A stretch of DNA of 64,000 nt from Candidatus Bathyarchaeota archaeon (GCA_963832745.1 CAWHVC010000003.1:1-64000), one strand, 5' to 3'; positions 33,733-52,861 are shown, counted from the first letter of the stretch. A program made the numbers and translations. Notes: a model not told the origin generated them from the sequence alone.

Positions 33733-34003
33733 AAAAAATTCACCTCCATTTCAGCACAGAGATAAGAAACATCAAAAAATGAGTGACGCGGTCACTTATT
33801 GTTATGTGGCTACTTCTTTGAAGCCACTTTTTTGGTGTTTTTAAGGGCGGATAAAATTTGCTTAGGAGGTAGGTGCTAATGACGGAAAAACATTTCATTA
33901 GTATGTTGAATTTAAAGTGGAGCCTTTGTTGTTTAAGCGGGTGTGCTGAGAATGTTTTTTTATTAGGTTGGACGAATATAGGTTCCATTAGGTGAAACTT
34001 GCA

Positions 34004-34945
34004 ATGGGTAAAGGTTCAGGTTACGGTAAAGTAATCCTATTCGGCGAACACTTCGTAGTTCACGGAGTGCCCGGAATAGTTTCAGCAATAGACTCATCCA
34101 CAGACGCCACAGTAACAAAAGCCAAAAGTGGTCTTAACGTTAGGGATGAACGTAAAACCGCAAAAGGCTACAGCGAAGAAAAGCGGCTCCAGCAACTCGA
34201 ATCTATCGAACGCATGCTAAAAGCCATGGGCTTAGACCCAAAAACGCCACTTGACATCTGGATAGGCGGAAGCCTTCCCGGCTTCAGCGGCTTAGGCGCG
34301 TCGGCAGCAAGCAGTGTAGCAATCGCAAGAGCAATCTCTGAGGAACTCAACCTCAACTTATCAAACGAAAAAATTAACCAAATCGCCTACGAAGCAGAAA
34401 TTGCTTATGCAGGCAACCCCAGCGGCATCGACAACACCGCCGCAACCTACGGTGGCTTAATGTGGTTTAAGAAAAACCCAGCGGGCGGACAAGACTACGT
34501 TGAAAAAATTCATATCCGCAAGCCAGTTGAAATCGTGATTGGCAGCACAGGCAAAGTCGCCAACACCAAAGCTATGGTTGAAGGCGTAGCAGAACGCAAA
34601 AAGAGAGACCCCGCCAAATATGACCCGCTCTTCAAGCAAGCGGAAAACCTTGCAGTTGTCGGACGCAAAGCCTTGGAAGCAGGAGACCTTAAAAAAGTCG
34701 GTGACCTCATGAACGAAAATCACCGTATCTTGCAAGAAATCGGCGTATCCAGCAAAGAACTCGACCAACTTGTTGACATAGCACGCAAACAGGGCGCGTT
34801 TGGCGCAAAATTGACAGGCGGCGGTGGTGGAGGATGCATGGTTGCATTGACGCCGGGCAAAGAAGTTCAAGGCAAAGTGGTTGGCGCCTTTAAGGGTGCT
34901 GGTTTTGAATATTTGATGACCAGAATAGGCGTCGTAACATACTAA
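34004..34945 (+). CDS. mvk: Mevalonate kinase
   Basis: GKVILFGEHFVVHG, GLGASAA, GNPSGIDN, GAKLTGGGGGG. Confidence 0.95.
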   Translation: MGKGSGYGKVILFGEHFVVHGVPGIVSAIDSSTDATVTKAKSGLNVRDERKTAKGYSEEKRLQQLESIERMLKAMGLDPKTPLDIWIGGSLPGFSGLGASAASSVAIARAISEELNLNLSNEKINQIAYEAEIAYAGNPSGIDNTAATYGGLMWFKKNPAGGQDYVEKIHIRKPVEIVIGSTGKVANTKAMVEGVAERKKRDPAKYDPLFKQAENLAVVGRKALEAGDLKKVGDLMNENHRILQEIGVSSKELDQLVDIARKQGAFGAKLTGGGGGGCMVALTPGKEVQGKVVGAFKGAGFEYLMTRIGVVTY

Positions 34946-35103
34946 ACAATGTATACTGGGCTTTTTAGCCCGTATTTGATTTTTTCGTACTTTGATTTCA
35001 ATGCAATCGGTAACTGGTGAACATCAGGGAAAAGTTTGAAAGTGATGATCTAAGGCTCAACGTATAGCATGAATTATGATTCATATCTATGATTACGATT
35101 CAC

Positions 35104-35127
35104 GGGTTCGAATCCCAGCGGTCCCAC
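35104..35127 (+). repeat. tRNA 3'-end fragment (att-like) copy 1
   Basis: GGGTTCGAATCCCAGCGGTCCCAC: T arm plus acceptor 3' strand, no 5' half upstream. Confidence 0.75.
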
Positions 35128-35257
35128 AATCCCTGACTCGAAAAGGGTACTGAATTTTTCTCTTTTTCACCTATACTTTTTTGGGTTAAGTGCCATCAGG
35201 TGTTTATTGCAATTATTTGAGATTAAGAGCCTTTAAAGTGTAAAACGTGTTTGTGGC

Positions 35258-36112
35258 TCATGGTTTTGTATGTTGGTTGAGTGTCATGTCCATACTTAGG
35301 TTCATCGTATAGTTTAGCGCTTGGTAAGTTGATGATTGATAACTTACTGTTTCCTGCATTGTTGATTTAATTTGCCGCATTGTTCCATACTCAATGAAAA
35401 CTGTATAGTTCATCTCTGTGCTTCCAGACATGTTAACGCTGGGAACCTCCAGGTGCATGTTGCCAGTAGTGATGCTTACCTTGACTACTTTGTATGTGCC
35501 GGCAGGCACCGTTAGTTCTTCAATACCTTCAAAAGTAATCGTTAAGTTGTCTTTTATGCCTATACTAGAAAGCGCGCTTGGATAGGGTACGGTAATGGAA
35601 TCGCCAACTTTAACTTCGGACTTATTCAATAATTGAGTAAGGTAAGAATCTCCGGAAATGCCTGTGCTAGTAAAGGATGCCTGCGATGAGTCTCCAAGGT
35701 TTAGCATAAAGGTTGAGTAACCAGTTTTATTCATTGTTTCAAGCACTGAAAAGTTAAGTGGCTTCCCCAAAATATCCATTGTAGTAGTATGATTCAATGT
35801 ATAGAACGCGCCATCAAAATCAACAACTTCAACAGTCTGTGTTGAATCCATTGTCATATTGCTAATTGCACCCAGACCAGTGCCAGTTATTACTGTGTTA
35901 TACACCATTCTTTCGCCAACTTGAAAGTCTGCGGTGAGCGGTATTGCCGCTGCACCTTGAGGAAACAAAAGGGCCACAGCAACTATCACAACAACTATTA
36001 CAGCAAGTAAAGCGTAAAGCTTCTTGCCAAACCATTTAAAACCTGCAGAATTTGGCGCTTAATTATCTGTTGAAGGATTCCCTGAAGAAGTAGTGTAGAT
36101 TCTGTTTAGCAT
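35258..36112 (-). pseudogene. Membrane-anchored exported beta protein with premature TAA at codon 18
   Basis: ATG 36112, in-frame TAA 36061-36059, then KKLYALLAVIVVV TM; EELTVPAGTY motif; may instead start downstream of the stop. Confidence 0.6.
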
Positions 36113-36208
36113 GCTTGTTTCGCCAACCTACAGCTTATGCAAGCAGTATTAATTTCTACACTTTAGGACATCCAATCTTAAGGAAAGAGCCATGAGCTTC
36201 CAATAACA

Positions 36209-37399
36209 TTACAGCGAAATTGCCTTTTTCTTTCTTAAGTAAACCAAAGCCAGAAATATCATCACTACCACGATTGCAGCTAAACTGCCCACAATGATTC
36301 CATCGAAAACGATCGAGTCACTGCCTGCATCATCAATGTTATTAGATTTGTCAGTAGTATCTATGTCAAAATCATTGCTGACTATAAAAATGTCGTCATT
36401 AGATTCAAAGATAATTTTGTTCCCGCTGTTACTGATAGATGGATATTGGTCTTTCACAGTATTACTTGTTAACTGTGTTAATCCTGTTCCGTCTGAATTG
36501 ACAACGAAAATTTCTGTGAAACTATCAAAGCCTTGTTGAAAAACTACTTTTGTGCCGTCACCGCTGATACGGGAATATGAGTCGCCTAGGTCGTTATTTG
36601 TCAGCTGGATTAATCCGGAACCATCACTGTTTACGATGAATATTTCAGTAGCGTTTTCATCAAGCATTGTTGAGCTTTGTGTAAATGCCACTTTGCCACC
36701 ATCTCCACTGATTGATGGCCAACTGCTTTTGCTGTTATCAGCATTATATGTTAACTGTGTTAACCCTGAACCGTCAGAGTTAACAACAGAAATGTTAGCC
36801 ATTCTGCTGATTCCATCCGGAAACGCAATTTTGCTTCCAGCATAATCTATAGTGGGATTAGTTACAAAAGGAACGTAATCTCCTTTGTTGGCAGTTAGTT
36901 GCTTTAATCCGGACCCATCAGAATTTACCACATAAAGCAATACGTTATTACCCGTTTTGCGAGTGAATGCAATTTTGTTTCCATCCCCACTAATGGCTAA
37001 CTGTGCATCATCGTAGGAACCATCGGTTAACTCCCTGAAACCGGACCCATCAGCGTTAATAATGCATATTTGACGTTGACCAAAAATCCCATGTCTAAAC
37101 GCAACTCTGCTACCATCACTACTAAGAAAGGGTGCTCTGTCATCAACAGAGTTATCTGTTAACTGCGTTAATCCCGTGCCATCAGAGTTAATAACAAAAA
37201 TTTCCCAATCATCACCGTCATTACGGGCGAATGCTACTTTGCTACCATCACCACTAATGGTAGAATCTGCTTCTTTGTCAGGGCTTTGAGTCAAATTCAT
37301 AGGCATTTCCCAAGAAATACCGTTGACATTGAGTACAAAAGAAAAATGAACGCTTAGAAATAATACAAGCACGACAACAAAAATTGTCTTTCTTTTCAT
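36209..37399 (-). CDS. TolB-like beta-propeller surface protein
   Basis: Repeats SISGDGxKVAF...EIFVVNSDGSGLTQLT; signal peptide; C-terminal TM + RKKK. Confidence 0.9.
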   Translation of the reverse strand: MKRKTIFVVVLVLFLSVHFSFVLNVNGISWEMPMNLTQSPDKEADSTISGDGSKVAFARNDGDDWEIFVINSDGTGLTQLTDNSVDDRAPFLSSDGSRVAFRHGIFGQRQICIINADGSGFRELTDGSYDDAQLAISGDGNKIAFTRKTGNNVLLYVVNSDGSGLKQLTANKGDYVPFVTNPTIDYAGSKIAFPDGISRMANISVVNSDGSGLTQLTYNADNSKSSWPSISGDGGKVAFTQSSTMLDENATEIFIVNSDGSGLIQLTNNDLGDSYSRISGDGTKVVFQQGFDSFTEIFVVNSDGTGLTQLTSNTVKDQYPSISNSGNKIIFESNDDIFIVSNDFDIDTTDKSNNIDDAGSDSIVFDGIIVGSLAAIVVVMIFLALVYLRKKKAISL

Positions 37400-37710
37400 A
37401 AAAATACGCCTCTTACAGTTTCTTCAAAAAATTGAGTTAAGGCAATCAAAAAAGACTTGGATAAACTGCTTAGACATGCAGTATCTAAAACTGGTTCAGC
37501 TATTAGGTCATCGCTGCCAAAGTACTCTCGGATTTTACTCCGCGAAACACAGCCATACATAAGCATATTCCCTCGATTGCCACTATTAACTATTGAAAAA
37601 ATATTTATTTCTATACAATAGTACACATGTTTTATTGTTTAAACTAAGTAAAAAAAGACCACAAACTATAACTCAATAAACATAAAAACAAAAACTTTTT
37701 ACGGCTTTAT

Positions 37711-38616
37711 ATGAATAAGCTTTGTGGTCGTTTATTTGCAATCTCTTCAGTATTTCGGCGTATACCTTATCCAGTAGGAAGACTACGGATTTTTAGCGCG
37801 ATATTTTTAGCGATTTTTTCAGGAATTGCACTTTTTTTAGGTTCCACAAATCTTGAATGGTTCACTCCAATGCGTTTAACATATCTTTTTTACGGAATTA
37901 TTATAGGTATTTTTTTAGGCTTATTCGAAACTAAACTGGTACTGTCTAAGTTATCAAAAAATAGTGAAACCCTAATTTGGCAAGTTTGGATAGCCAATAT
38001 TGTTTTGTTTGGACTACTCTTGATAGTGTTAATACAGATCTTTGGAAATTCAGAGTTTTGGCCATTCATCACCTACGTTTTTCCACTTATTCCAGCTTTC
38101 CTTGCCGTAAGTGGCTGGTATTTCAGCAAGTTTGAGACCATAAACAAAGTAAACGTCTTTGTGTTTTATTTTGGTTTTAAATATTGGAAATTTCCAAGTC
38201 CTGATATTGATGAACGATTTCAGCGCTTTTTGGAAGATGTTGCTTCAAAGGACATTACGCAATTCTGGGGACAAATAGGTTCATCTTTGGGCTATGTCGG
38301 ATACACAAAAATATTTGAAAAAATACTGATGGAAAAGAAAGACATGGATAATGCAAAAAAAATAAAGCTAAATAGAATCATAAAGGCGATGAATACTTTT
38401 AGAATAGCAGCAATAGTTTGTCTTTTGATAATGCTTATTTCTGCTTTTACCATAATTATACTGCTTTTGGGAGTGTCCTCAGGTTATTTCCAATTTAAAT
38501 TTAATATAGTGCAATTTATAGGTCCCGCTTCAGGAGTAATATTGTTCGGATTTTTTACCAGTTACTTTATTCTTATGTATACCTTTCAGAGAAAAATGTC
38601 TAAATTGTTCCAATAA
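37711..38616 (+). CDS. AT-rich polytopic membrane protein
   Basis: About 6 TM segments; no recognisable motif. Confidence 0.65.
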   Translation: MNKLCGRLFAISSVFRRIPYPVGRLRIFSAIFLAIFSGIALFLGSTNLEWFTPMRLTYLFYGIIIGIFLGLFETKLVLSKLSKNSETLIWQVWIANIVLFGLLLIVLIQIFGNSEFWPFITYVFPLIPAFLAVSGWYFSKFETINKVNVFVFYFGFKYWKFPSPDIDERFQRFLEDVASKDITQFWGQIGSSLGYVGYTKIFEKILMEKKDMDNAKKIKLNRIIKAMNTFRIAAIVCLLIMLISAFTIIILLLGVSSGYFQFKFNIVQFIGPASGVILFGFFTSYFILMYTFQRKMSKLFQ

Positions 38617-38677
38617 TAAAAAAATAAGTGCATAATTTAAAATAAAAAAAAGGTTGATTGTTTTTTGCTTTTACTGC

Positions 38678-41158
38678 TTATTTCTTGCGAAGTACTATCA
38701 GGCCGACGATTGCTACTGCAATGATGATTGCAATAACGCCGAGAATGATGGTTGTTGATACGTTGCTGGTGATTGAGTCAAAGTTGACTGGTGTTGCTGT
38801 TGCGGTGGTTGCGGCTGGTATTACTGTCAGTTTCGTTACTGAGCTAGATGGCCAGTATGAATTGGTTCCTGCAAAGGTAGCTTTGATTGTATACACACCG
38901 GTAGTTTCTGGAACAAAGCTAAAGCCGTATGTGCCTGATGAATCTGTTGTGGTTGTGCCAATATTGACTGTATTGCCGTTAGGGTCAACCGCTGTCAAGG
39001 TCACTGTAACACCTTCAGGTTGTGGCGGGTTGTTTAGCAGTGTTGAGTTTTGCATATGTTTATAGTCCATCCATTCGCTCATTGAGGAATCAGAAACTGC
39101 TGAAACACCTGGTTTCGCTGGAGATTGATCCAATACATTGCCTTTTATGAGAACTGTTGCATGATTGGCTACGACATCATTTTGTATGGTTACTGAAGTT
39201 GAAGTCTCGCCCTTGCCTATGCAGTAGAGTTTTCCGTCGTACGCGCTTAAGCCTATGATGTAACCGTTTGCTGCAGCCCATGGAACAACTCCACCATTTA
39301 AAGTCTAAGTAGTATCTCCTGTAGTAGCATTTGTGCATACTAGCATTCCTTGTCTAGGAATAGGGTTGATTTGATATGCAACAGAGTAGCCCCCGTAGGT
39401 ATAGATATTGCCGCCTTCCATGACCATGCCAATCCAGTAGGGCACTACATTATTGGTATATTCAGTAGAAGCAAAAGCTGTGCTTTCCCAAACTAAGTCG
39501 CCTGTCTGCAAACTCAAAGCGCGAATTGAGCCATCAGGGAACATAAGATATAAGTTGTTTTCGTCATTTGTCCAAGAGTTATAAACTGTGTATTGTGAAG
39601 TCCATGGAGAATCTGCAAAACTTTCACTTGTCCATAATTCAGCGCCAGTAAGCATTGAATAGCAATGGAATGTTGCATCAACAGGATTAAAGGTGACAAA
39701 GCCGTTTATGTTTGAGCGATATAAAGCAAATGCCTCGCCGACTGAATAGGGTATGGTAAGGTTCCATAGCGATGTGCCATCTTTTGCGCTGAAGCCCCAG
39801 TATTGATTGGCGGCGTCATCTTTATTGGCTAACACTATTGTAGATAGATCTGCTGATATTCCAAGAAGAGATGCTGAAGGCTCAAAGAGTGGGCTTGTCC
39901 ATGTAATTCCTGTAGGCCAATTTTCGTCGACTACTTGCGACATGTCCCAAGCAAACAAGTTGTCACCTTCTATTCCATATGCAAAATTGGTGCCATCAAC
40001 TAGTCTATAGATAGATGCAGAGGCATTATCGATGGAGCGCATTAGTGTTCCAGTCAAGGGGTCATAGAAGTTCCATGTAGGGCCAGAAAAGAACCACCAT
40101 ACAGGGCTAGAGGTTCCAAACAGGTAAGGTGTTGAATAGGCTCCATAAGAATTGGCGAGAACTACGGAAGGATCAAGAAAGCTAAGGGCATATGCGTCTC
40201 CAGGTAAGCGTAGGCCAGCTTGGATCGAGCCATCGGCTGTATACAATACTTGTCCTGTTGTTAAATCGATGCATTCAAACTTGCCAGCATTGGGTATATT
40301 TACGAATACTTTGCCATCCATAACTACAGCGCCTTGACCAGCATAATTAGGAGATCCATAACTTCTGCTGCCATAATCTCCGCCAACTATGCCGCCTGTG
40401 TTAAGCGGTTGGCTCCAGACTACATGCCCAGTGTTGGGTCCTGAACCATATGGCTGCCACAAATTACAACCAACACCACTAATAACAGTAGATTTAACTA
40501 AACCATATTGCAGCCAGTCGCCTGAGATTTGGCTCCATTCTCTGTTGTTACTGTTTATGGGGTAGCTCCAGTAAGTATTATCGTTTGGTAGTTGTGCCCA
40601 TGGATAACCGTTGAGAAGACCTGCGTTTACTGGGTCAGTCTGTACTGTAAAAGAGGCTGTATTACTAGTGCACGCGGTATATTGTATAGTTCCAGTGTCG
40701 TCAGTTATGTTCTGTGCAGGCATTGTGAAGGATACGCTCCAGTTACCCGCCATATCAGGCTTATAAAAGAAGAAAATGCTGCCAATTGACTCTGTTTGTC
40801 CAGGTGCAAGTGTGCCTGTCCCATCTACGGGCATAAAGGTATCCTTAGATCCATCAGGTTTTACGAAGGTTACAGTGACTCCATTATAGCCTTGGTAATA
40901 TGTGTCTTGAGCATAGTTTTTAGGTCCCGGAAAAACCCAAAGATTCACTGTCGCTTGCTGACCAACCCCAATAAGTGTTGGTGCAATACTGGCAAAACCT
41001 GCAGTTTTAACCGGCTGAGGAATAACTTCTTGAGCCGAACTTGGTTGAGCAAAAGTCATCATCATTGTCATAGCTAACATCAGAATCAACGAAACCGAGA
41101 AGACTGCCTTTGTATTTCCACTTAATTTATCGCTTAAAATTCTTAAATTTCTAGTCAT
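38678..41158 (-). pseudogene. PQQ-like beta-propeller surface protein interrupted by one in-frame TAG (39307-39305)
   Basis: ORFs 39305-41176 and 38678-39133 share a frame; the gap reads TTGDTT*TLNGG...YDGKLYCIGKG; the stop sits where other blades have Trp. Confidence 0.85.
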
Positions 41159-41219
41159 TTTTGTTTTCCTTTTCAAATTTTATGTCGTTACCTGTATGGC
41201 TAAAATGATAAAATCATAA

Positions 41220-41284
41220 GCGAGTGGGGCTACCACTAGCAAAAAAATTATGGGTGCGAGTGGGACCTTCACCAGCAAAATTAT
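41220..41284. promoter_or_regulatory. Tandem operator-like repeats in divergent promoter
   Basis: GCGAGTGGGGCTACCACTAGCAAAA and GCGAGTGGGACCTTCACCAGCAAAA 36 nt apart; first contains AGTGG-N5-CCACT palindrome. Confidence 0.6.
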
Positions 41285-41321
41285 AAATGTCTACTCGCCT
41301 GAAAATTATAAACGAGTTAAC

Positions 41322-42137
41322 GTGTCGGATAATAATGATGAGCTAAAAACTCTCTGTGACTTGGGGCTAACGCTCCAACAAGCAAGGGTATATTTGGCTT
41401 TTGTTAGAATTGGGATAGCATCTGTCCAGGAGGCATCAGCGGTTGCAAACATAGATAGAAGTGAATGCTACCGCGTTAGCTGTCAACTCATAGAAAAGGG
41501 GCTTATAACCAAAGTTCTCACTTCACCCATAAAATATGAAGCTATTATGTTTGATGCGGTAATAAGGAACTTACTTTTAAAAAGGAAAAATGAAGTATCA
41601 TTGCTCGAAAAGAAAACAGAAAATATGCTTAAAAAAATGAAAACGAAGGATAAACCAGTAATTATCAATGAAGCCAATAATGGCATATACGTTGTCCAGA
41701 TGAGTCCTGCTGCAGTGGAACAGGTAAATCACTATTTAGCAAGTGTTGTAGAAAGCTTTGATGCAGTTATGGATGTACAATGGTTTGAATCGAATCAAAA
41801 TGTTACTTACGAGGGGGACATAAGGGCGCTGCAAAGGGGGGTAAAATATCGAATGTTAATATCAGATGCAAACGGCACCTTTGACATTAAAAGATTCCCA
41901 AAATATCTGGAAGAAATAGGTTTTGATCTTAGATTAACAACTGAGTCTATTGCCACACCTTTGAGTGTTTTAGATAAAAAAGCCGCTTGTATATTTATTT
42001 CAGGAGAGAATGTTTTAAAGGCATCTTGTCTCTTCACCAAAAATGAGCGCATGATAAAGATAGTTCAGCACTATTTTGATACTTTATGGATAAATTCAAT
42101 AAAGGTAGAAATGGAAAGAAGCGCAGACCCCCAATAG
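41322..42137 (+). CDS. TrmB-family transcriptional regulator
   Basis: LGLTLQQARVYLA...IDRSECYRV..QLIEKGLI..SPIKYEA; C-terminal effector domain ending YFDTLW. Confidence 0.9.
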   Translation: MSDNNDELKTLCDLGLTLQQARVYLAFVRIGIASVQEASAVANIDRSECYRVSCQLIEKGLITKVLTSPIKYEAIMFDAVIRNLLLKRKNEVSLLEKKTENMLKKMKTKDKPVIINEANNGIYVVQMSPAAVEQVNHYLASVVESFDAVMDVQWFESNQNVTYEGDIRALQRGVKYRMLISDANGTFDIKRFPKYLEEIGFDLRLTTESIATPLSVLDKKAACIFISGENVLKASCLFTKNERMIKIVQHYFDTLWINSIKVEMERSADPQ

Positions 42138-42619
42138 TCCCGTTTGGATAAAACGGCACCTTGAATGCATCACATAGTGTTTATTGATAAATTGCTGCGA
42201 ACAAATTATCTTAAAAAAGTGAAAAAATGGAAAATGAAGCTAACGTAACAAAAATTGTATTTGATACTTTTTGCTTTATAGATAAGTTCCAAAAATGCAA
42301 GAATAACAGAAAACATTATAAAATACCTGTATCTTTGTTGAACTTTTTTATTCGTCAGGGCTTTTTCCAATAATCTTTTATGGGTCCGTTACTTGCTGAA
42401 ATTTTATGCGAAAATGGGTGATAATTGTCATAGCGGTAGCTATGTTTCTCGCATGCTTAATACTCCACCTTTATTCAGCGATTTCCTAGAATGCTTTGCA
42501 AATGACAAAATTACATTCATACACACTACTGATGAAACCCCGTTTTGTTATCTTCCACATTTGTTTATAGTCGTAGCCAAAACAAACATTCACAATCATC
42601 CCAATCAAGATACTTCTCG

Positions 42620-43020
42620 CAAACAAATACGAGAAAGCCATAATTTGTCAGTTTTCAAAGGAAGAGAAGCAAAACTAAATCGAGTTATACTATTAATTCT
42701 CTTTCAACCAGCCCCTTGATTATTTATGATATCACTAAAGAAATCAAAAACAGAAGGGTTTTAAGTATACAAAATACACTAATGTTAACCGTAGAGTGAA
42801 AGCACTTCTAAAACAAGATTTTGTGGAAGCTGTCGGCAGCAGAGAAACCCAATCAGGGTTCAAAGGCACGCTGTATCAACCTACAATCAGAGCAAAAGTC
42901 GCCTTTTATTTAGATGAAATAAGCCCAGACCAGTTTATCAAAAAAACAAGTAAGGGTACATTAGCCACAGGATTAGCTACAATAGCGCTTTTCCTAGAAG
43001 ACATATGTGTACAAAAATAA
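42620..43020 (+). pseudogene. Winged-helix DNA-binding protein with two frameshifts
   Basis: LSVFKGREAKLNRVILLIL / LIIYDITKEIK / KQKGFKYTKYTNVNRRVKALLKQDFVE...GTLYQPT lie in three successive frames. Confidence 0.55.
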
Positions 43021-43156
43021 TTTATTTGATATGTCTTTTTAAGATAGATGACTTTACAGCCACTAACAAAGTCTCTACACTTGTGAAAGTCACTGTGCGT
43101 ATAGTATATCATGAGCCCAAAATTTTCTTAGCCTTAGCTTCGCAAGTAGCTTTAAG

Positions 43157-43528
43157 GTGAAACGGTTGAAAACCAAAAAAGTAACAGTCCAAGAAATCAT
43201 CGCTGACATCGGAGCCATCCTAAACAAAATCAACCTTGTACTAAACGATCAAGAGCTAAGACTACAACTAATTGAAGAGATGGACCTAAAAATCGAACTT
43301 GAATTACTAAAATCCAGAATTCTAGCCATATCTGACCTAAAAAAGCAGGCATCAGCTTTGCAGGCACTCAAAAACCTCTGCAGCATTCTTGCAATTTCTG
43401 ATGTAGAACCCATAAACCATAGTTATCTGCTGGGTGGAAGGGAATGGCCGAAATCACAGCAAAAACAACACAAAACCCAAACTGCGAAAAAACAAAAGCC
43501 AGAGGCGCCACCCCTAAAGCATCCCTAG
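43157..43528 (+). CDS. Hypothetical element-associated helical protein
   Basis: Open frame, Leu-rich helical N-terminal part. Confidence 0.45.
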   Translation: MKRLKTKKVTVQEIIADIGAILNKINLVLNDQELRLQLIEEMDLKIELELLKSRILAISDLKKQASALQALKNLCSILAISDVEPINHSYLLGGREWPKSQQKQHKTQTAKKQKPEAPPLKHP

Positions 43529-43866
43529 AAAGAGACGCTGGCATTAATCCCCTAAATTCATCCCAGCAATTAATTGTTGTTCGCTATTTAGACCATGTTT
43601 TATACAATCGCACGTCTGCAGCAGCAATGAAGCCTCAGGCAAGAGAAGCCATCGACTGGCTATTGTACGATTGCGAACTATACATTATTTTAACTTGGGA
43701 TCGGGACACTGAACCACCCTCTCTTCATGGCGGCGACTTAAAAGCTTCGGGTTTAGTGCTTCTAAAAAGCGATATTTTAGACCTACAATTGCTAAAAGCC
43801 AGTGCGCAGCCTCTACCAAAAATACTTGTTGAATTTAAAAAGCAAACAAGCCATACAAGGAGCTGA
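43444..43866 (+). CDS. Hypothetical element-associated protein
   Basis: GGTGG SD; globular core LIVVRYLDHVLY...YIILTWDRD...ASGLVLLKSDIL. Confidence 0.6.
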   Translation: MAEITAKTTQNPNCEKTKARGATPKASLERDAGINPLNSSQQLIVVRYLDHVLYNRTSAAAMKPQAREAIDWLLYDCELYIILTWDRDTEPPSLHGGDLKASGLVLLKSDILDLQLLKASAQPLPKILVEFKKQTSHTRS

Positions 43867-44039
43867 GTATGCGTTCCGACTATCGGAGCGAAAAACTCAC
43901 TCCCAAAAGTCTAAAGGGGATAAGCAGCCATGATTCAACGAACCGCAACCTTAGCCCCCGCTATACCCCGAACCCGCAAACTATCCGTAGAACAACTACA
44001 AAGCCTCAAGCTACCACTGATATTCCAGGCGACGTCATC

Positions 44040-44377
44040 ATCATCGAAAGAAGCCTAAACGATTTCAAGCTAAGAACGCCAATAAGCATCAAACTCGAAA
44101 ACGTATTAAAAGCTCAAGAAATCGGCTTAGTCGAATACATCATAAAATCCTACCTCAGCTACCAACCAGGCATTATCCCATACATCTTTGAAAACAAAAG
44201 CCTAGTAAAAGTAGCACCTATGAGGACGTTCAGAGTTTAGGGGTAGAGACACTAAGAAACATGTATTCATCAACCGGATTAGCAATTAGACCAAAGACAC
44301 AAGTGAACAGAATCGATCAGCTATCTATCTTAGCCGAGCAGCTAAAAGAGCTCATAAAGAAGGATGTCTCAACATAA
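44040..44377 (+). pseudogene. Probable internally deleted tyrosine-integrase remnant
   Basis: 44213-44377 reads STYEDVQSLGVETLRNMYSSTGLAIRPKTQVNRIDQLSILAEQLKELIKKDVST*, resembling from recall the catalytic-Tyr and tail region of archaeal integrases; att-like fragment 45 nt downstream. Confidence 0.5.
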
Positions 44378-44422
44378 AAACAACCGTAAAACAGTACTTT
44401 TTAGCGTTCGCACCAGAAGAAA

Positions 44423-44437
44423 CCAGCGGCCTCACCA
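44423..44437 (+). repeat. tRNA 3'-end fragment (att-like) copy 2, degenerate
   Basis: CCAGCGGCCTCACCA, one mismatch to the last 15 nt of copy 3. Confidence 0.6.
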
Positions 44438-44457
44438 TCTACATTCTTTGGGATTCA

Positions 44458-44736
44458 CTATTTTTTGTCTTTCCAATTCCACCACTTAAGTTTTTCAGGG
44501 TCAGGGTTTTTGTTTTCAGCAAAATAAATTGATGATCTGCAAACATACAAAACACAGTGATCTACTAGTTTTCCCTGTGTGAAACATATTTGTGAATATA
44601 GTTCCTCTGGATTTTTGCCCTTTAAATCTGCAATCTTTGTGATGCCGATTCTTTTGAAGTCTTCCGTTATAGAGTCTCCAACGTAAGGTATTTGGGTTAA
44701 TTCATTGATGATTTTGTGCTTCCTCAAAACAATCAC
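44458..44736 (-). CDS. Helix-hairpin-helix protein (Cdd1/mitomycin-resistance-like)
   Basis: LTQIPYVG...DLKGKNPEELY...DHCVLYVCR...LKWWNWKD. Confidence 0.85.
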   Translation of the reverse strand: MIVLRKHKIINELTQIPYVGDSITEDFKRIGITKIADLKGKNPEELYSQICFTQGKLVDHCVLYVCRSSIYFAENKNPDPEKLKWWNWKDKK

Positions 44737-44767
44737 AAATTCTTTTCAGGTTTAATTGATTAATGAT

Positions 44768-45196
44768 TTAGAGTGGAATCTTTAGGTTTCCTTTTTCATC
44801 TAATTCCCAAAATGGGTTGTAAGCTACCTCGATTAAGTGTCCATCTGGATCTTTGAAGTAACCGCTATATCCACCCCAGAAAACCTTCTGCGCAGGCTTA
44901 ACGATAGTTCCACCCAACTTAGCCACTTCCGCCAGTACAACGTCAACTTCAGTCTCGTTTTTCGCGTTATACGCGAGGGTTATGCCTGGAAAGCCGTTGC
45001 CGCCCTCAGGTACATTTGCATCTTCCGCAAGCAATTTCCGTGAATACAAAGCTAAACCGATACCGCCTAAATCAAATAAAACCAAGTTATCGGTGCTTCC
45101 TGAGGACCTTTTCCACCCAACTCCATTTTCATAAAAGTTGACTGCTTTCTCTAAATCTGTCACGCCTAACGTAATTAGCGTAATTTTCTGTCGCAT
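44768..45196 (-). CDS. VOC/glyoxalase family protein
   Basis: ITLITLGVTDL, KVFWGGYSGYFKDPDGHLIEVAYNP. Confidence 0.93.
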   Translation of the reverse strand: MRQKITLITLGVTDLEKAVNFYENGVGWKRSSGSTDNLVLFDLGGIGLALYSRKLLAEDANVPEGGNGFPGITLAYNAKNETEVDVVLAEVAKLGGTIVKPAQKVFWGGYSGYFKDPDGHLIEVAYNPFWELDEKGNLKIPL

Positions 45197-45381
45197 TGTT
45201 CTTCCTCAAGTGAATGAAAGTAAGACTTAGCTTAAGAGAATTATTAACAGTTTAATATCAAAAGAAAAATGTTAGGTGTCCTCTCTATTAACATTGTGAT
45301 TCCAGAGGTCCACTATGATAATCCAATTCCATGTTATATTGGGGTTGTTTGCGTTTATGCCTTAGGTAGCTAATTTCTTGT

Positions 45382-47586
<2,205 letters not shown>

Positions 47587-47651
47587 TTACATTCATTCAA
47601 AAAATCTCCTTTTCGCTATATAGGACTGCACAAACGGTTCATTTAAGAATT

Positions 47652-47667
47652 ATTATTATCTAATAAT
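47652..47667. promoter_or_regulatory. AT-rich palindrome beside katG TATA box
   Basis: ATTATTA-TC-TAATAAT directly upstream of minus-strand CTTAAAT (47647-47641). Confidence 0.4.
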
Positions 47668-47812
47668 CTGTGCGCTACCTTGTTTTGACCCTCAGCAATT
47701 AAGCTCTATGAAGTAAAAGCTGCACGGTAACACTGTAGAGAACAACTTTCTGCCAAAAACCCGTTGCTTTAGCCGAGCGTGCGTAAACTTTGTAACTAAG
47801 TTACCCTACAGC

Positions 47813-48199
47813 GTGAAGAAGGATGAGTCATCTTCACAGTTTATTGACGTGAGAATCAAGGAGCTGGGCGATTGGCGTGGAGAAACATTAGCCAACGTTC
47901 GGCGGCTTATCAAGGAGGCAGATCCGGATGTAGTTGAAGAACGGAAGTGGGTGAAGCCTGCATTCCTGGAACCCCAGTCTGGTCGCACAACGGGGGCATC
48001 TGCACAGGTGAGACCTACAAGAGTGTGGTCAAACTCACATTCTTCAAGGGTGCTTCGCTGGATGATCCATCTCACTTGTTCAACCAGCTTGGGACTGTTA
48101 GGCGCGCCATCAATATACATGAAGGCGACAAAATTGATGGAGGAAGCTTTCAAGATCCTTATTCGTGCCGCTGTGAAACTGAACACGTCCAAGTCCTGA
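47813..48199 (+). pseudogene. DUF1801/YdhG-like protein with two compensating frameshifts
   Basis: IKELGDWRGETL..VRRLIKEADPDVVEE.KW in frame A; GTPVWSHNGGICTGETYKSVVKLTFFKGASL in frame B; EAFKILIRAAV back in frame A. Confidence 0.8.
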
Positions 48200-48346
48200 T
48201 AATGCTAAATGTTTGAATGTTTTGGCGGACGCGCGCTTTCCAGAGGGGTGTATCCCCTCGGACCCGAACCTGTAACTTTTATAAAGGGAAATAGTTGCGT
48301 AGTAATCTGAGTGACTACGATTCGCTAGTATCGCTACAACGTCTAA

Positions 48347-48370
48347 GTTCAAATCCCAGCGGCCCCACCA
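48347..48370 (+). repeat. tRNA-Pro-like 3'-end fragment (att-like) copy 3
   Basis: GTTCAAATCCCAGCGGCCCCACCA; flanks also resemble copy 1. Confidence 0.8.
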
Positions 48371-48528
48371 ATCCTAACTTAAAAGGTATTGTCTTTTTCT
48401 TTTAGCTTGTTTTCTTACCCATTTTTTATATTTTTTCCAGCAGAAGCTTCACTAAAGATTTATAACAGAATTTTTTTGAAGAGATACTATCGCGGAATGA
48501 TAAGCCCAATATACTGGTGGTATAAACA

Positions 48529-49068
48529 ATACAAATTATTACTAACCGATTAGAACTAAGAAATTTCACAGCAACTGATGCTCAAGGCTTATTAGAGTTA
48601 TTATCAACTCCCCGAGTCAATTGTTTTCTTAGTGACAAGATTACGACACAACAGGAGGCTTTATCGGAAGTTGAAAAGAAAAGCAAAGATGATGCACATA
48701 TCGCTGTTTCTTTGAAAGAAGAAAAGTTTCTAATTGGCGAGCTATTTTATTTATTTGAAGCCCCAGATACTTATTCTATAGGATGGAACTTTAATGCACA
48801 ATATGAAGGAAAGGGGTATGCAAGTGAAAGTACAAAGGCATTTATACAATATCTTTTCATAGAAAAAAAGGCTAGACGATTATACGCCTATGTTGAGGAA
48901 AATAACTCTCGCTCTCAAAATCTGTGTGAAAAACTGGGTATGCGTAAAGAGGGTTGTTTTTTAGAATTCATTTCATTTACCACTTATAATAATGGGATTC
49001 CTAAATACGAAAATACATTTCAATATGCATTACTAAAAAAAGAATGGGAAGCGCAGCAAAAAGCTTAA
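48529..49068 (+). CDS. RimJ/RimL-type GNAT acetyltransferase
   Basis: Frame extends to ATA 48529 (xQIITNRLELRNFT) after GGTGG; YEGKGYASE, NSRSQNLCEKLGMRKEG. Confidence 0.88.
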   Translation: MQIITNRLELRNFTATDAQGLLELLSTPRVNCFLSDKITTQQEALSEVEKKSKDDAHIAVSLKEEKFLIGELFYLFEAPDTYSIGWNFNAQYEGKGYASESTKAFIQYLFIEKKARRLYAYVEENNSRSQNLCEKLGMRKEGCFLEFISFTTYNNGIPKYENTFQYALLKKEWEAQQKA

Positions 49069-49346
49069 TCGTCAAGCAATCGTAAAGTTTGCATTATGCC
49101 GTGTGGCGGCCTGCCGGTCGACCTCTTCAGAAACGATTTCCCTCGATCCAGACTGCTTTTGGAAGGGGCAGTTTGCCAGATCCCCCAACCGTTCCCCGAT
49201 TGCGTATTCAGTGCATCGAAGCTAAAAAAAAAGTGCCTTTTACGTCCAAATCAGAAAAATCGAGCGATCCTACCACTCGTTTAGGCTGTAAGATTGGAAT
49301 GTTGGGAATCACTTCGAAAATCTTTCTATAACTTATTTTTATCTAA

Positions 49347-50816
49347 TTACCTTGACACAACTGCCAAGAATGGTTCAGGTCCCATATCGGTTGTCGCATA
49401 TACAGCCAATGCTATACTCCAAAAGACGTCATCGTGTGTTCCCTGCGGATGGGAGAAACCAATGTTTCCGTCTCTTCGCAGGTCATATCGTTCCACATTA
49501 AGCTCAGTGCATATGTCGCCATGGTAGGGGTGTTCCCAATTAAGTAAGGGATAGAAGAATTGTTTGTTTAGCAGTCTCTGTTTTAACAGACTTGCCATTT
49601 CACTTTTTCTAGGCACACTAAAGGTGACGCCCTCAGCGTTATCAACTCCTGCTGCTTCCATGTCAGCAATAAAGCTTGGACCTTCACGGGTAAAATCTAC
49701 TCTAATGCGTTCAAAACCTCCCCAGCGATCCTGCAAAGCTTTAATGTAAGCTATAACAGGCGCATATACGGTTGGCTGCTTGAAGATTTTTAGGTGACGC
49801 AAATAGAGCAAGTCGTTTTGACGCTCTAAAACTGAGAAAACCGTGTAATCTTTGGTTTGAGCCAAATCTAAGCCAGCAAAAAAGTCTCCTTCCCTTGAAC
49901 TTTGGGGATCAAAAGCATAAAGTTCCTTTTTGCAGTTCTTTACAGTGCCAATGCAAGATGCAATTAAGCTCTGATTTAGCCAGACGTTGTCATCTTCTAC
50001 CCATTCAGCTTGCATTTCTCTTTGCCAACGTGAAGGGTCATCACCCATCTGAGTCTTTATCTGCGCAATAATGTTGGGCTTTAAGGGGCCTTTTGGGCTT
50101 AATGCTTGTTCATATGTGACATGCGAGGTTTTAAAATTGTTAAATTTCTGGTGAGTAAAGATCTTGTAGAAGACGCTGTCGGTATGCCAAGGAGTGCTGC
50201 TACAAACGAATTTACCATCAGTAGTACCCAGCGTGTAAAGGATTGCATCATATAGGTCTTGATCGTTAGCCACGAAATTGAACTCATCCGCATAGACCAC
50301 ATCTAGCGTTGGACCTCTGATGGTTTCAGGGTTGTTGGGAAAAGCCTCAATGCTGCTCCCATTGACAAAGTGGATCTGCGTTTTTTGCGGCTTAAAAACG
50401 ATGCTTCGCGGTAGTTTATGAGCAAAAGCTGCTATACGTGCTATGATTCGTTTGGTTTGACGCCAAGATGGCCCCACTATGCCGATTGCAACATTTGGGT
50501 GGGTAACTGCGTACTTTAGCAGTAGCGCAGATATGGTTTGGCTTTTGCCGCTTTGTCTACACCATCTGGCAGCGGTGAACTGGTTATTTTCAAAGAGCTC
50601 AACAAACTCTTTTTGATAATCATAGAGTCTAAAACCCAATATACATTCAAAAAAGTCGACAGTGTTAACGCTTAATTGTTCCATCTGTCTAGTAACTGTT
50701 TGCTTAACTTCATCATGGTCCCGATCAATCTCACGAAATTTAGCTAAGAACCGGTTGGGTTGAAAAGTTCTAGCTTCTTTCTTGGATTTCTTTGAGCATC
50801 TGTCGTAATTGCGCAT
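49347..50816 (-). CDS. Terminase large subunit
   Basis: LYDYQ adenine motif, WCRQSGKS Walker A, VYADEF Walker B, SSTP coupling motif, RNase H-like GLDLA and HDDVFWSIALA. Confidence 0.9.
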   Translation of the reverse strand: MRNYDRCSKKSKKEARTFQPNRFLAKFREIDRDHDEVKQTVTRQMEQLSVNTVDFFECILGFRLYDYQKEFVELFENNQFTAARWCRQSGKSQTISALLLKYAVTHPNVAIGIVGPSWRQTKRIIARIAAFAHKLPRSIVFKPQKTQIHFVNGSSIEAFPNNPETIRGPTLDVVYADEFNFVANDQDLYDAILYTLGTTDGKFVCSSTPWHTDSVFYKIFTHQKFNNFKTSHVTYEQALSPKGPLKPNIIAQIKTQMGDDPSRWQREMQAEWVEDDNVWLNQSLIASCIGTVKNCKKELYAFDPQSSREGDFFAGLDLAQTKDYTVFSVLERQNDLLYLRHLKIFKQPTVYAPVIAYIKALQDRWGGFERIRVDFTREGPSFIADMEAAGVDNAEGVTFSVPRKSEMASLLKQRLLNKQFFYPLLNWEHPYHGDICTELNVERYDLRRDGNIGFSHPQGTHDDVFWSIALAVYATTDMGPEPFLAVVSR

Positions 50817-51204
50817 TTTCTTCTTCCATTTTCTTTAACTTGATCTCTATTTCTCGATAATGGGCAAAATCCGCAGCAAGTTCTTTGTACTTTTCACAAA
50901 TATTGGCCACCAACTGTAAACGCTGTACCTCAAGCTTTGTTAGCCCAGGTTTAACAGAAGCCCGCATGGCACCCGCCATTATTTTAGTGGCCTCTTCAAT
51001 ACTGGGTAACTCTTTAGGCAAAACTATTGAGTTATCTACATAACGTTTAACATGCAAATCCAAATTCAAGCGTTGGGCTTTAACAATCACAGCTTTGGGC
51101 GTCTTGTTTAGTATAGCAGCAATCTCTTCAACTTTTACGTTATTCTCAATTAGGGTTTTGAGCTGTGACTCTTCTTGAGATGTCCATTTTCTGCGTTGAA
51201 CCAT
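50770..51204 (-). CDS. HTH + helical protein overlapping TerL (terminase small subunit candidate)
   Basis: WTSQEESQLK...VEEIAAILNKTPKAVIVKAQRL Myb/HTH-like N-terminus; coiled-coil C-terminus. Confidence 0.7.
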   Translation of the reverse strand: MVQRRKWTSQEESQLKTLIENNVKVEEIAAILNKTPKAVIVKAQRLNLDLHVKRYVDNSIVLPKELPSIEEATKIMAGAMRASVKPGLTKLEVQRLQLVANICEKYKELAADFAHYREIEIKLKKMEEENAQLRQMLKEIQERS

Positions 51205-51544: not shown

Positions 51545-52861
51545 GTGGGCTTAAGAAACTTTATTGAAGAACTCCAAACTAAAGGCGAATTAACTAAAAT
51601 CACAAAGCCCGTCTCAACCGAATATGAGATGGCAGGCATCATCGCAGCTTTAAGCGAAAAACCGGTAATATTTGAGAACATTAAAGAATCTGCTATACCG
51701 GTGGTTGCGGGTTTGGTTTCTTCTAAAGAACTGATTTGCCGTTCACTTGGCATAACAAAAGAGCAGCTTTTGCCGAAGTTATCCTCAGCCATCGAGCAGC
51801 CCAAGACGCCAACAATCGTGCAAAATGCTCCATGCCAAGAAGTAATCCACACAGACGCAGACGTGGACTTAACCAAACTACCAATCATGCACTACACCGA
51901 CAAAGACGGCGGAAAATACATCGCCTCAGCAGTCTCCATCATAAAAGACCCACAAACAGGCCACCGCAACATGTGCTTCCACCGCCTCATGCTCAAAGAC
52001 AAAAACCATTTCATCGCCCGCATTGTGGAAAACCGTGGAACCGACAGTGCCCTCAAAAAAGCAGGCGGAGAACTCGACATAGCCATCTGCGTGGGCAACT
52101 CAACAGCGGTACTTCTTGCCGCTGCCACCTCACTTCCAACAGGAGTAGACGAACTTGGCATGGCAAACGCGCTGGAAAAAATGGAAACCGTAAAATGCAA
52201 AACCGTCGATTTGGAGGTTCCAGCGGAAACAGAATTTGTATTTGAAGGCAGAATAACCAGCAAGAAAGCAACGGAAGGCCCATTTCTTGACTTAACAGGC
52301 GTTGTTGACCGCGTCCGCCAACAACCCGTAATCGAAATCAAATGCATAACCCACCGCAAAAACCCGATTTACCAAACAATTTTGGCCGGCAAAAACGAAC
52401 ACAAATTCTTAATGGGCATGCCTAAAGAACCCACCATCTACAATGAAGTTAACAAAGTCTGCCAATGCAAAGACGTCTACATCACCCCCGGCGGATGCAG
52501 CTGGCTTCACGCAGTTGTGCAAATCCACAAAACCGACCCAAACGACGGCAGAAAAGCAATCCTCGCCGCCTTTGAAGGCCACAAATCACTAAAACACGTT
52601 GTTGTAGTGGATGAGGACATTAACATTTATGACCCAAACGATGTTGAATGGGCAATCGCGACCCGGTTCCAAGCCGACAAAAACTTAATCGTCTGCTCAA
52701 ACCAGCCGGGTTCAAGCCTTGACCCCTCCGGCGATTTAAGCGAAGGCAAAAAAGCCACAACCGCCAAAGCCGGCGTTGACGCTACAACCCCAATCGTCAC
52801 GACAGGCAAAGGCTTCAAAAAAGAGGATTACATAAAAGTCGACTTAAACAAATACATGTGA
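51545..52861 (+). CDS. UbiD-family decarboxylase, probable anhydromevalonate phosphate decarboxylase
   Basis: HRLM, EGPF, VVVVDEDI, VEWAIATRFQ, GSSLDPS; operon with AcnX subunits. Confidence 0.9.
   Translation: MGLRNFIEELQTKGELTKITKPVSTEYEMAGIIAALSEKPVIFENIKESAIPVVAGLVSSKELICRSLGITKEQLLPKLSSAIEQPKTPTIVQNAPCQEVIHTDADVDLTKLPIMHYTDKDGGKYIASAVSIIKDPQTGHRNMCFHRLMLKDKNHFIARIVENRGTDSALKKAGGELDIAICVGNSTAVLLAAATSLPTGVDELGMANALEKMETVKCKTVDLEVPAETEFVFEGRITSKKATEGPFLDLTGVVDRVRQQPVIEIKCITHRKNPIYQTILAGKNEHKFLMGMPKEPTIYNEVNKVCQCKDVYITPGGCSWLHAVVQIHKTDPNDGRKAILAAFEGHKSLKHVVVVDEDINIYDPNDVEWAIATRFQADKNLIVCSNQPGSSLDPSGDLSEGKKATTAKAGVDATTPIVTTGKGFKKEDYIKVDLNKYM

Follow-up and report, generated by a model that had tools for sequence, protein, structure and literature searches.

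In a genome of a Candidatus Bathyarchaeota archaeon, the genes for mevalonate kinase (mvk) and a UbiD-family decarboxylase (ubiD) are separated by 16.6 kb of DNA (34946-51544) that is very probably an additive island: temperate virus-type elements would have integrated repeatedly and site-specifically at a tRNA-Pro(GGG) site, and most of the element genes would then have been deleted. The block lies within the first 64 kb of contig C3, referred to here as the window, in an assembly of five contigs and 3.02 Mb (G000); positions without a contig name are those of the window. This reading follows from three pieces of tRNA-Pro(GGG) for which shuffled sequence gave 0.00 matches by chance, from homology of a gene remnant to a family of integrases, from the orthology of one tRNA piece with the right attachment junction (attR) of intact elements, and from an empty site in relatives. 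Gene identities within the block come from Pfam and PHROGs searches, and scores described below as weak are those under the cut-off.

The proposed layout would begin at the left with a dead copy of the tRNA (copy 1). The next unit would measure 9.3 kb, its right end retaining three conserved element genes, a doubly deleted tyrosine integrase and its attR core (copy 2). It would be followed by a 3.9-kb unit in which only cargo survives (genes for a helix-hairpin-helix (HhH) protein, a VOC-family protein, the catalase-peroxidase KatG and a DUF1801-like protein) and which is closed by copy 3. At the right would stand the left end of a head-tail provirus, with genes for a helix-turn-helix (HTH) protein and the large terminase subunit (TerL) reading towards copy 3. 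The integrase pseudogene is not in the same unit of the array as TerL. We infer that a tyrosine recombinase crossed over within the last ~16 nucleotides (nt), or within the 3' half, of the tRNA, and that each arrival pushed older units away from it; the order of arrival would follow likewise. The features on which this layout depends are the following, with protein lengths in amino acids (aa) and attachment sites abbreviated att.

33992..34945, + strand: mevalonate kinase (mvk), left host flank; GHMP_kinases_N/C, E 1e-16; adjoins ubiD in relatives.
about 35053-35129, + strand: copy 1, apparently a decayed full-length tRNA-Pro(GGG) and dead attL/attB; 3' part at 35106-35129.
42393-42719, 42796-43020 and 43444-43866, + strand: three small conserved element genes, which precede the integrase in intact relatives.
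43869..44377, + strand: tyrosine integrase pseudogene; N-terminal piece 43869-44240, C-terminal piece (catalytic-Tyr region) 44192-44377.
44423..44437, + strand: copy 2, attR core, last 15 nt of tRNA-Pro(GGG); 15/15 match.
48347..48370, + strand: copy 3, final 24 nt of tRNA-Pro(GGG) in an allelic form with the acceptor CGGCCCC, which genome G008 also has.
49347..50816, - strand: TerL, intact, 489 aa; Terminase_6N, E 2e-17; phrog_2, E 1e-38 over residues 36-474.
50770..51204, - strand: HTH protein, 144 aa, overlapping the TerL start, a small-terminase-like partner; phrog_323, E 9e-9.
51545..52861, + strand: UbiD-family decarboxylase (ubiD), right host flank; Pfam and synteny in relatives.
52868-54441: large and small subunits of AcnX, after ubiD; Pfam.

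The flanking genes mvk, ubiD and those for the AcnX subunits we take to be steps of the archaeal mevalonate pathway. Among the 31 genomes searched, ubiD was matched in 29, and the DNA upstream of it was analysed for 14 of these loci. The gene order between 35 and 51 kb is not part of a conserved core, in agreement with the first-pass annotation of this DNA: mvk and ubiD are adjacent in nine of the 14 loci, with a spacing of 14 to 1540 nt against 16.6 kb in the window. The gap is 14-15 nt in G016, G003, G004 and G013, 63 nt in G024, 185 and 374 nt in the closest relatives G017 and G008, 831 nt in G015 and 1540 nt in G007. The corresponding 4.3 kb of G014 hold TerL and its HTH partner only. Within the 13-19 kb upstream of ubiD that were examined in G001, G010, G012 and G005 there is no mvk, and three of these four loci hold TerL or a piece of it upstream of ubiD. 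As relatives have the empty site, we regard the 16.6 kb as an insertion, and the 14-nt gap looks ancestral. An intact tRNA gene is present at the site in none of the 14 loci.

The repeats that delimit the inserted units are derived from one host tRNA. The first-pass annotation had described three co-oriented tRNA 3' pieces without an intact cognate in the window, and this description holds. Its 24-nt word is found at 35106-35129 with three mismatches and at 48347-48370 with none, on the + strand in both cases, while 100 shuffles gave 0.00 matches; the 15-nt word CCAGCGGCCTCACCA is found at 44423-44437 without mismatch and at 48356-48370 with one, and shuffles again gave 0.00. ARAGORN called no tRNA gene in the window, the first tRNA of C3 lying at 70055 when the whole genome was searched with introns allowed. 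Rfam returned no tRNA match over 34000-52000 even at E<=10, and its only match in the window is a 5S rRNA at 54541-54660. The cognate working gene encodes tRNA-Pro(GGG) and is located at C2:466921-466999, 1.7 kb from the end of C2, so the repeats do correspond to a tRNA of the host. Copy 2 matches the last 15 nt of this gene at 15/15 positions, copy 3 matches at 23/24 and copy 1 at 20/24; all three are on the + strand, as direct repeats bounding the inserted units. The flanks of copies 1 and 3, whose similarity had also been reported, have 38 nt in common at 79% identity, and the upstream motif TGAyTACGATTC is itself tRNA-derived, from the anticodon-stem/variable-loop region.

Copy 1 appears to be the remains of a whole tRNA gene, extending beyond a 3' fragment. 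A 24-nt segment of the D-arm and anticodon stem matches tRNA-Pro(GGG) at 18/24 positions with the correct spacing, a score that 0.47% of 3000 random genome windows reach, and traces of the D-arm, anticodon stem and T-arm are retained in a sequence that neither ARAGORN nor Rfam calls a tRNA. A better preserved pseudo-tRNA in G012 (score 24, reached by 0/3000 random windows) has its left flank in common with copy 1 and points towards the orthologous TerL, whose stop is ~32 nt away; in G035 the last 16 nt of the tRNA occupy the equivalent position, about 32 nt from the TerL stop. The G012 pseudo-tRNA is orthologous to copy 1, and G012 represents an unoccupied, one-unit state, a dead tRNA and then TerL. 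Compared with G012, the window has gained the 13.2 kb bounded by copies 1 and 3 between the dead tRNA and TerL. The functional tRNA-Pro(GGG) on C2 leaves the local copy free to decay. The earlier description of all three copies as fragments is thus right for copies 2 and 3, which are partial, and needs correcting for copy 1; with a whole dead tRNA at its left the layout becomes the canonical one of tRNA, elements and 3' repeats.

Random-window scoring detected nothing tRNA-like before copies 2 and 3 beyond the pieces already aligned. Copy 3 has further tRNA-derived sequence upstream, which is broken by an insert of ~20 nt and has derived bases in common with copy 1. This layout suggests a second element type with a longer identity block. 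The spacer that follows copies 1 and 3 was also compared with the spacer between tRNA and TerL in G012 and G035; the similarity was too weak to use.

The integrase-like remnant that had been noted before copy 2 belongs to a family of intact genes. This family was surveyed in 61 genomes of the genus, and 16 loci were examined in detail. The open reading frames (ORFs) at 43869-44240 and 44192-44377 align collinearly with the N-terminal and C-terminal ends of a single gene in these 16 loci, and four intact relatives of it were read out at 477-480 aa. The second ORF matches paralogous fragments on C5 and C1, which carry the recombinase HxxR and catalytic-tyrosine region. With the C5 fragment as query the family was found in 45 of the 61 genomes, typically as open frames of ~480-500 aa, and the window piece was matched at E 1.8e-7. 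Relative to the nearest intact genes (G005:C16 and G016:C5; 81-90% DNA identity) the window gene has lost ~870 nt and ~100 nt. The end of the pseudogene is 45 nt from copy 2, and because the stop codon, the 45-nt spacer and the 15-nt core are near-identical in the window and in these two intact elements, with 81-90% identity over integrase 3' end, spacer and core, copy 2 can be identified as the attR junction of an element of the G005:C16/G016:C5 type. The three small genes that precede the pseudogene stand in the same order upstream of the intact integrase in locus L057 (tblastn), and partial sets occur in L045-L049, L054, L060 and L084.

The position of the integrase in relatives is equally regular. 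In five of the 16 loci it reads towards an intact tRNA 27-42 nt away (Gln, Lys twice and Asn twice); at least eight have the layout of the window, with a short co-directional tRNA 3' piece (Lys, Asn, Arg or Pro) after the integrase; three fit neither layout clearly. The gene is whole in relatives, with 27-50 nt between its end and the tRNA or att core, and the arms on the integrase side in L051, L084 and L085 are not tRNA-like. A genome-wide search of G000 with PF00589 gave 12 matches, several of them beside tRNA genes. The PF00589 cut-off is 27.1 bits; the intact member in L051 scores 34 bits, and one of the three intact members tested passes. A sequence search of the PDB with an intact integrase returned no match at E<=0.01. 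The ORF at 37711-38616 was considered as a hidden integrase and rejected: its weak tblastn matches (E 1-5) are of the kind obtained by chance, and its translation is a multi-pass membrane protein.

Intact elements of this integrase family, where delimited, measure 13.3, 33.9 and 39.5 kb. Each of two integrases in G014 has a further copy of the same tRNA-Lys core 39.5 kb upstream, and one of the two stretches holds genes for a terminase, a cement protein, a tail-tube protein, a 984-aa protein of tape-measure size, ParA and a DNA methylase, together with chemotaxis/kinase cargo. The cores in G060:C9 are 33.9 kb apart and enclose a TerL of the window type and homologues of genes that score as tail/neck in a sister locus; the 13.3-kb element of G068 is likewise bounded by tRNA cores. 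In the annotated G014 provirus (L061/L062, G014:C1:2494500-2534400) the cargo was seen to include a CheB-CheR-PAS-histidine-kinase fusion of 1101 aa, another kinase, a gene resembling response regulators, and a C5 methylase that carries a fused HhH-GPD domain. The second G014 tRNA-Lys provirus is 83-92% identical to the first over parts, as judged by BLAST comparison only.

At the right end of the island, TerL is intact and has what we take to be Walker-type and HDD motifs, in an ATPase and a nuclease part. The TerL family occurs in 48 of the 61 genus genomes, often in several intact copies, and 26 chromosomal loci were examined in detail. G000 itself has four TerL loci, one of which faces an intact tRNA-Gly(TCC) at 52 nt. 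A query of IMG/VR with the single protein returned one contig; an alignment-based query returned 142 TerL relatives, of which 80 loci were kept. An HTH homologue stands directly upstream of TerL in 66 of these 80 loci, the contigs reach 44 kb, and of the 32 contigs with at least 10 kb upstream, 18 end within 3.5 kb after TerL, some of these contigs being near-duplicates of one another. The HTH and TerL genes can therefore be assigned to a viral packaging pair, in which the HTH protein would by position be a putative analogue of the small subunit. What the window holds is a provirus remnant and no whole provirus.

The TerL genes at the ubiD locus have turned over. Against relatives, the ratio of nonsynonymous to synonymous substitution rates (dN/dS) of this TerL is 0.05-0.11, indicating purifying selection, with dS near saturation. 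Between G010 and G035, ubiD gives a dS of 0.39 and a dN of 0.016, compared with 1.18 and 0.127 for TerL, and strict vertical descent of the ubiD-locus TerL, as expected from domestication, is rejected by this discordance. TerL 3' fragments lie in tandem beside a full TerL in G010 and G050. The pattern fits repeated arrival of related elements, as opposed to one ancient domesticated gene. Island growth of the tycheposon type, by repeated integration and decay that leave accessory cargo behind, had been proposed at first pass, and it agrees with the repeats, the attR junction and this turnover of TerL.

At a second locus of G000 vertical descent is not rejected. There an HTH-TerL pair (C3:444900-446400; L028 9910-11752) lies between primase/GINS genes and the genes L44e-S27e-eIF2alpha, and it is found in the same place in G008, G063 and G068; the G000 copy has one internal stop. 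In the other three genomes the second-locus TerL has a dN/dS of 0.06-0.07 and a dS of 0.45-0.59, compared with 0.72-1.0 for two flanking host genes. A solo terminase pair seems to have been retained here for a long time. G000 was observed to have two eIF2-alpha genes, one in this L44e-S27e-eIF2alpha row at C3:441 kb (L028 6059-6853) and one in the window at 7978-8778, the latter preceded by small ORFs without a Pfam match.

Several observations weigh against serial integration as the origin of the whole block. Neither Pfam nor PHROGs finds a capsid, portal or tail gene in 34946-51544. No fourth att copy was seen at 51205-51544, between the HTH gene and ubiD, which leaves the TerL unit unclosed, and only five of the 26 chromosomal loci have the TerL stop facing a tRNA or a piece of one. 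PF00589 has no match in the island even at E<=1, the remnant having been found through its own paralogues, and the integrase call depends on homology to a divergent family of which one in three tested members passes the Pfam cut-off. An internal junction made by an integrase with a 16-nt core would leave no tRNA-derived sequence to the left of copy 3, and a second kind of element has to be assumed there. In the left unit, the 7 kb of propeller, Ig-like and TrmB genes represent families found throughout these genomes and could be host DNA brought in by a rearrangement. Finally, with no intact tRNA in any of the 14 relatives' loci and an ancestral-looking gap of 14 nt, the starting attB would itself be an arrival that serial integration does not explain.

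This last difficulty is what the strongest rival addresses. The block may have been built at the true tRNA-Pro(GGG) locus and then moved between mvk and ubiD by a chromosomal rearrangement, either through integrase-mediated recombination between att-like sites or through an imprecise excision that took the tRNA gene along; we think this possible but distinctly less probable. The ancestral mvk-ubiD junction is without a tRNA, yet copy 1 and its G012 counterpart keep 5' parts of one. As the attP arms of the element family (those of L051, L084 and L085) lack tRNA 5' parts and are not tRNA-like beyond the ~16-nt core, the 5' part of copy 1 must be chromosomal, and a rearrangement or an imprecise excision carrying the tRNA along is the likeliest source of the ectopic copy. 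The neighbourhood has also been rearranged between lineages, as seen in the positions of Memo and enolase and in the distance of mvk in G010, G012, G035 and G050, and the true tRNA-Pro locus of G000 is broken in the assembly, with C1 ending in the last 23 nt of the tRNA. Integrase-driven inversions have been proposed for Thermococcales, in the part of the source available (PMC5495485). Against such a transfer, no second breakpoint or matching half-site was found, the ends of C2 and C3 have no sequence in common, and the tRNA-Pro(GGG) flanks of G000 (C2) and G008 (C9) are unlike, so that no ancestral locus can be fixed for comparison. The transfer would moreover cover the origin of the first unit only, and copies 2 and 3 still need serial integration. 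The first-pass annotation had instead proposed a small, satellite-like element of integrase, winged HTH and TerL that integrated repeatedly and left gene cassettes behind; such an element would spread with the help of other viruses. To this we give a slim chance. In its favour, HTH-TerL pairs with no recognisable virion genes nearby are common (judged from clustering alone, 20 of the 26 TerL loci have none of the clusters that were afterwards scored as tail/neck genes in L066), many HTH-TerL copies are intact, a TerL fragment lies 2.2 kb upstream of the integrase in L058, and the excerpted description of NitKor-E1 of a thaumarchaeon lists TerS, TerL and integrase but nothing else of viral kind (PMC6563490). 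In neither the 16 integrase loci nor the 26 TerL loci, however, was an intact compact integrase-HTH-TerL unit seen, and the delimited intact relatives of 13.3-39.5 kb do not bear out a small element. Both genes share one delimited element only at 33.9 kb (G060:C9), together with tail-gene homologues; viral contigs with this TerL extend up to 44 kb; and in the window two att copies part the integrase remnant from TerL, placing them in different units. That the pieces belong to a split, permuted or multi-intron tRNA gene, or are chance matches in an ordinary variable chromosome, has a negligible probability. Archaea of this phylum do have tRNAs with introns, which are carried by eight of the 47 tRNA predictions in G000, and copy 3 has its ~20-nt insert inside tRNA-like sequence, but chance is excluded by the shuffles (0.00 matches), and there is no matching 5' half, the 5' strand of the acceptor being missing. 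Two A-C mismatches disrupt the T-stem of copy 3, a complete tRNA-Pro(GGG) exists elsewhere, and copy 2 is flanked by an integrase 3' end as in intact elements.

Some further observations concern the ends and flanks of these contigs. C1 ends in the last 23 nt of tRNA-Pro(GGG) (C1:783532-783554), and its inward flank resembles that after the true gene on C2, in the stretch C2:466921-468683; it seems that the assembly breaks at an element integrated in the working tRNA-Pro. The end of C2, with the tRNA-Pro, and the start of C3, with the window, do not overlap, which gives no support for placing the true tRNA-Pro next to the window. A look for public sequencing runs that could show junctions in reads from this region listed none. 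The end of C3 and the start of C4 overlap by ~470 nt around a tRNA-Arg(CCG). When 33000-58300 is compared with loci L014-L016, L021-L023 and L026, Memo and enolase are found on the upstream side of mvk in the seven relatives G014, G015, G016, G003, G007, G004 and G013, and downstream of AcnX and the 5S rRNA gene in G000, whose left flank is also found in G008 and G017; this shift places a rearrangement breakpoint just upstream of mvk. No mvk lies within ~14-19 kb of ubiD or the ubiD-side TerL in G010 and G012, or within ~9 kb of TerL in G035 and G050.

Within the island reading, the fate of the terminase pairs deserves separate mention. The solo HTH-TerL pairs might be kept by selection, as a minimal terminase-only hitch-hiker or a host-retained packaging module that recognises DNA beside its att site and loads the adjoining island into the capsids of related helpers. 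This is improbable, and is put forward because TerL is intact with a dN/dS of 0.05-0.11, because the TerL at the second locus has a dN/dS of 0.06-0.07 and a dS of the same order as that of the flanking host genes, and because cargo sits exactly between an att copy and the TerL stop in both the window and G012. In the window this cargo consists of the GNAT gene and an 80-aa ORF, located between copy 3 and the TerL stop. If the proposal were true, tRNA islands would be self-transducing, with katG and the rest included.

The remaining genes of the island are accessory or cargo genes, as listed here.

35258..35989, - strand: 243-aa ORF, accessory, weakly DUF3108-like; Pfam E 2e-4, below cut-off.
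36209..37626, - strand: PD40 (WD40-like) beta-propeller, 396 aa, with an upstream 76-aa ORF; PF07676, E 3e-18.
37711..38616, + strand: multi-pass membrane protein, 301 aa; no Pfam or PHROG match.
38678..39133, - strand: Ig-like domain protein; Big_3_5 and others, below cut-off; multi-copy family in the genome.
39305..41176, - strand: PQQ_2 beta-propeller surface protein; PF13360, E 3e-12.
41250..42137, + strand: TrmB-family regulator, divergent partner of the PQQ gene; PF01978, E 1e-10.
44458..44736, - strand: Cdd1-type helix-hairpin-helix protein, cargo; PF11731, E 4e-25.
44768..45196, - strand: VOC/glyoxalase-family protein, cargo; PF00903, E 2e-14; paralogue at C3:67760-68207.
45382..47553, - strand: catalase-peroxidase KatG, cargo; PF00141, E 8e-72.
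47813..48199, + strand: DUF1801-like ORF (weak); Pfam E 5e-4, below cut-off; paralogue 400 nt after tRNA-Cys on C4.
48712..49331, + strand: GNAT acetyltransferase (C-terminal part called as an ORF) with an 80-aa ORF; Acetyltransf_3, E 3e-15, profile 65-138 of 138.

The cargo blocks had been named at first pass as propellers and TrmB, then HhH, VOC, KatG and DUF1801, then GNAT and TerL. Pfam and PHROGs agree on all of these except DUF1801, for which there is a weak match only (E 5e-4). The paralogues of the VOC and DUF1801-like genes sit near other tRNA sites of G000, and the PD40 propeller gene contains internal repeats of 132-150 nt. A pairing of TrmB with a large PQQ_2 gene was seen at several places in the genome, among them L030 7226-10729 on C2, directly upstream of the working tRNA-Pro(GGG), and L029 5731-9377 on C4, beside a broken TerL. 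Unusually many PQQ-domain genes are reported for Bathy-6 genomes in the accessible part of one study (PMC11697101). A motif that might join cassettes was sought and rejected: CGCGCGC occurs three times against 3.17 expected, and a search for repeats revealed no repeated junction sequence.

The katG gene is present in 11 of 18 same-genus relatives, and none of the nine loci examined keeps the neighbour genes of the window. In four of the nine an intact tRNA or a tRNA 3' repeat is at most 2.2 kb away; the contexts are tRNA-Leu-GAG (with a 3' repeat 7.7 kb on), Lys-UUU at 175 nt, Arg-UCG with two repeats, and a Gly-CCC repeat. The fifth locus (G008) has a piece resembling tRNA-Pro at a distance of 4.1 kb, and in G012 one katG abuts a TerL stop, while three of the nine loci have neither tRNA nor repeat by the same criterion. 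From these contexts katG appears to be roaming cargo, carried in tRNA islands at different tRNAs in relatives.

Other tRNA genes of G000 have been used in a similar way. At tRNA-Leu(GAG) (C3:388584-404877) a PF00589 integrase follows directly, and two copies of the last 20 nt of the tRNA stand at 11.8 and 16.2 kb, which makes this locus a second tandem array in the same genome. Extra 3' copies were likewise observed for tRNA-Phe, Thr(GGT), Leu(TAG) and Ala(CGC). At C3:70055-78326 (L031) ARAGORN calls an intron-bearing 'Pro(tgg)' whose anticodon loop as printed resembles that of Arg(CCU). A second copy of the last 20 nt of this tRNA lies 8.1 kb off on the same strand, and this is probably another integrated element. 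In G012:C13 (L018 15276-17774), the DNA between TerL and ubiD contains the 3' portion of an Arg(CCU)-like tRNA three times over, as two 48-nt copies (88% alike, 765 nt apart) and a shorter one, and no intact tRNA is called there. This intergenic region of G012 has gathered att remnants of a second tRNA type.

The island is a known and ordinary kind of genome growth, here in clear form. Arrays of elements at archaeal tRNA genes can decay into captured genes, a process termed gene capture. Elements with tyrosine recombinases form such arrays in archaea by re-using one site (PMC6563490). The island resembles these arrays in its tRNA 3' repeats between units, its integrase beside an att site, its decay and its re-use of a site; it differs in that the anchor is a dead extra tRNA copy inside a conserved metabolic gene pair. 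In SSV-type elements, which carry attP within the integrase gene, that gene is divided by integration into Int(N) and Int(C), one at each end of the element. In the window, by contrast, the integrase pieces are adjacent and in order, and the gene is not split to opposite element ends. Tycheposons of Prochlorococcus have partial tRNAs between elements and fragmented integrases deeper in their islands, according to the portion of the preprint at hand (bioRxiv 10.1101/2020.12.28.424599). Likened by that description, the two have in common the tRNA seed, the partial tRNAs between neighbouring elements and the build-up of cargo, whereas the host here is archaeal and the relatives are of provirus size with TerL and tail genes, in place of tycheposon replication modules. 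PICI-like phage satellites, which are compact, have an integrase and packaging-redirecting genes, lack virion genes and need a helper, also differ: no compact integrase-HTH-TerL unit was found in the 16 and 26 loci, and two delimited relatives have virion genes or their homologues.

Head-tail proviruses are already described from Bathyarchaeia. The accessible texts report that in a Bathy-6 genome a genomic island houses a provirus of 46.8 kb, terminase and integrase included (PMC11697101), and that eight head-tail proviruses are known from Bathyarchaeia (PMC11705971). The intact relatives found here resemble these, as far as those texts describe them, in having TerL with a small partner, genes for tail-tube, cement and tape-measure-size proteins, and integrase/tRNA borders; the window, likened to them by description, differs in holding remnants with no capsid, portal or tail gene. 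A parallel in gene content is NitKor-E1 of Ca. Nitrosopumilus koreensis, which in the excerpt consulted has TerS, TerL and a tyrosine integrase but no further virus genes and whose role its authors call enigmatic, regarding it as a likely relic (PMC6563490). In both cases a terminase pair survives without other virion genes; the difference from that partial account is that here a genome has the pair many times over, also at syntenic loci where it is under purifying selection.

For a group with no cultured members and no genetic tools, the island offers a clear example, dated by comparison, of how Bathyarchaeia gain accessory genes: tRNA-targeting viruses accumulate and decay, and leave cargo such as katG behind. 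The ectopic dead tRNA within an operon and the long-lived solo terminase pairs are its most noteworthy parts. Attachment sites need not stay with the working tRNA: one can take hold within a conserved metabolic gene pair and continue to draw in elements. For annotation, the borders and att cores of the ~480-aa integrase family (45/61 genomes) and of the TerL/HTH pair (48/61) could serve to delimit proviruses. Since the same cargo gene stands beside different tRNAs in sister species, these islands would act as a shared system of gene exchange.

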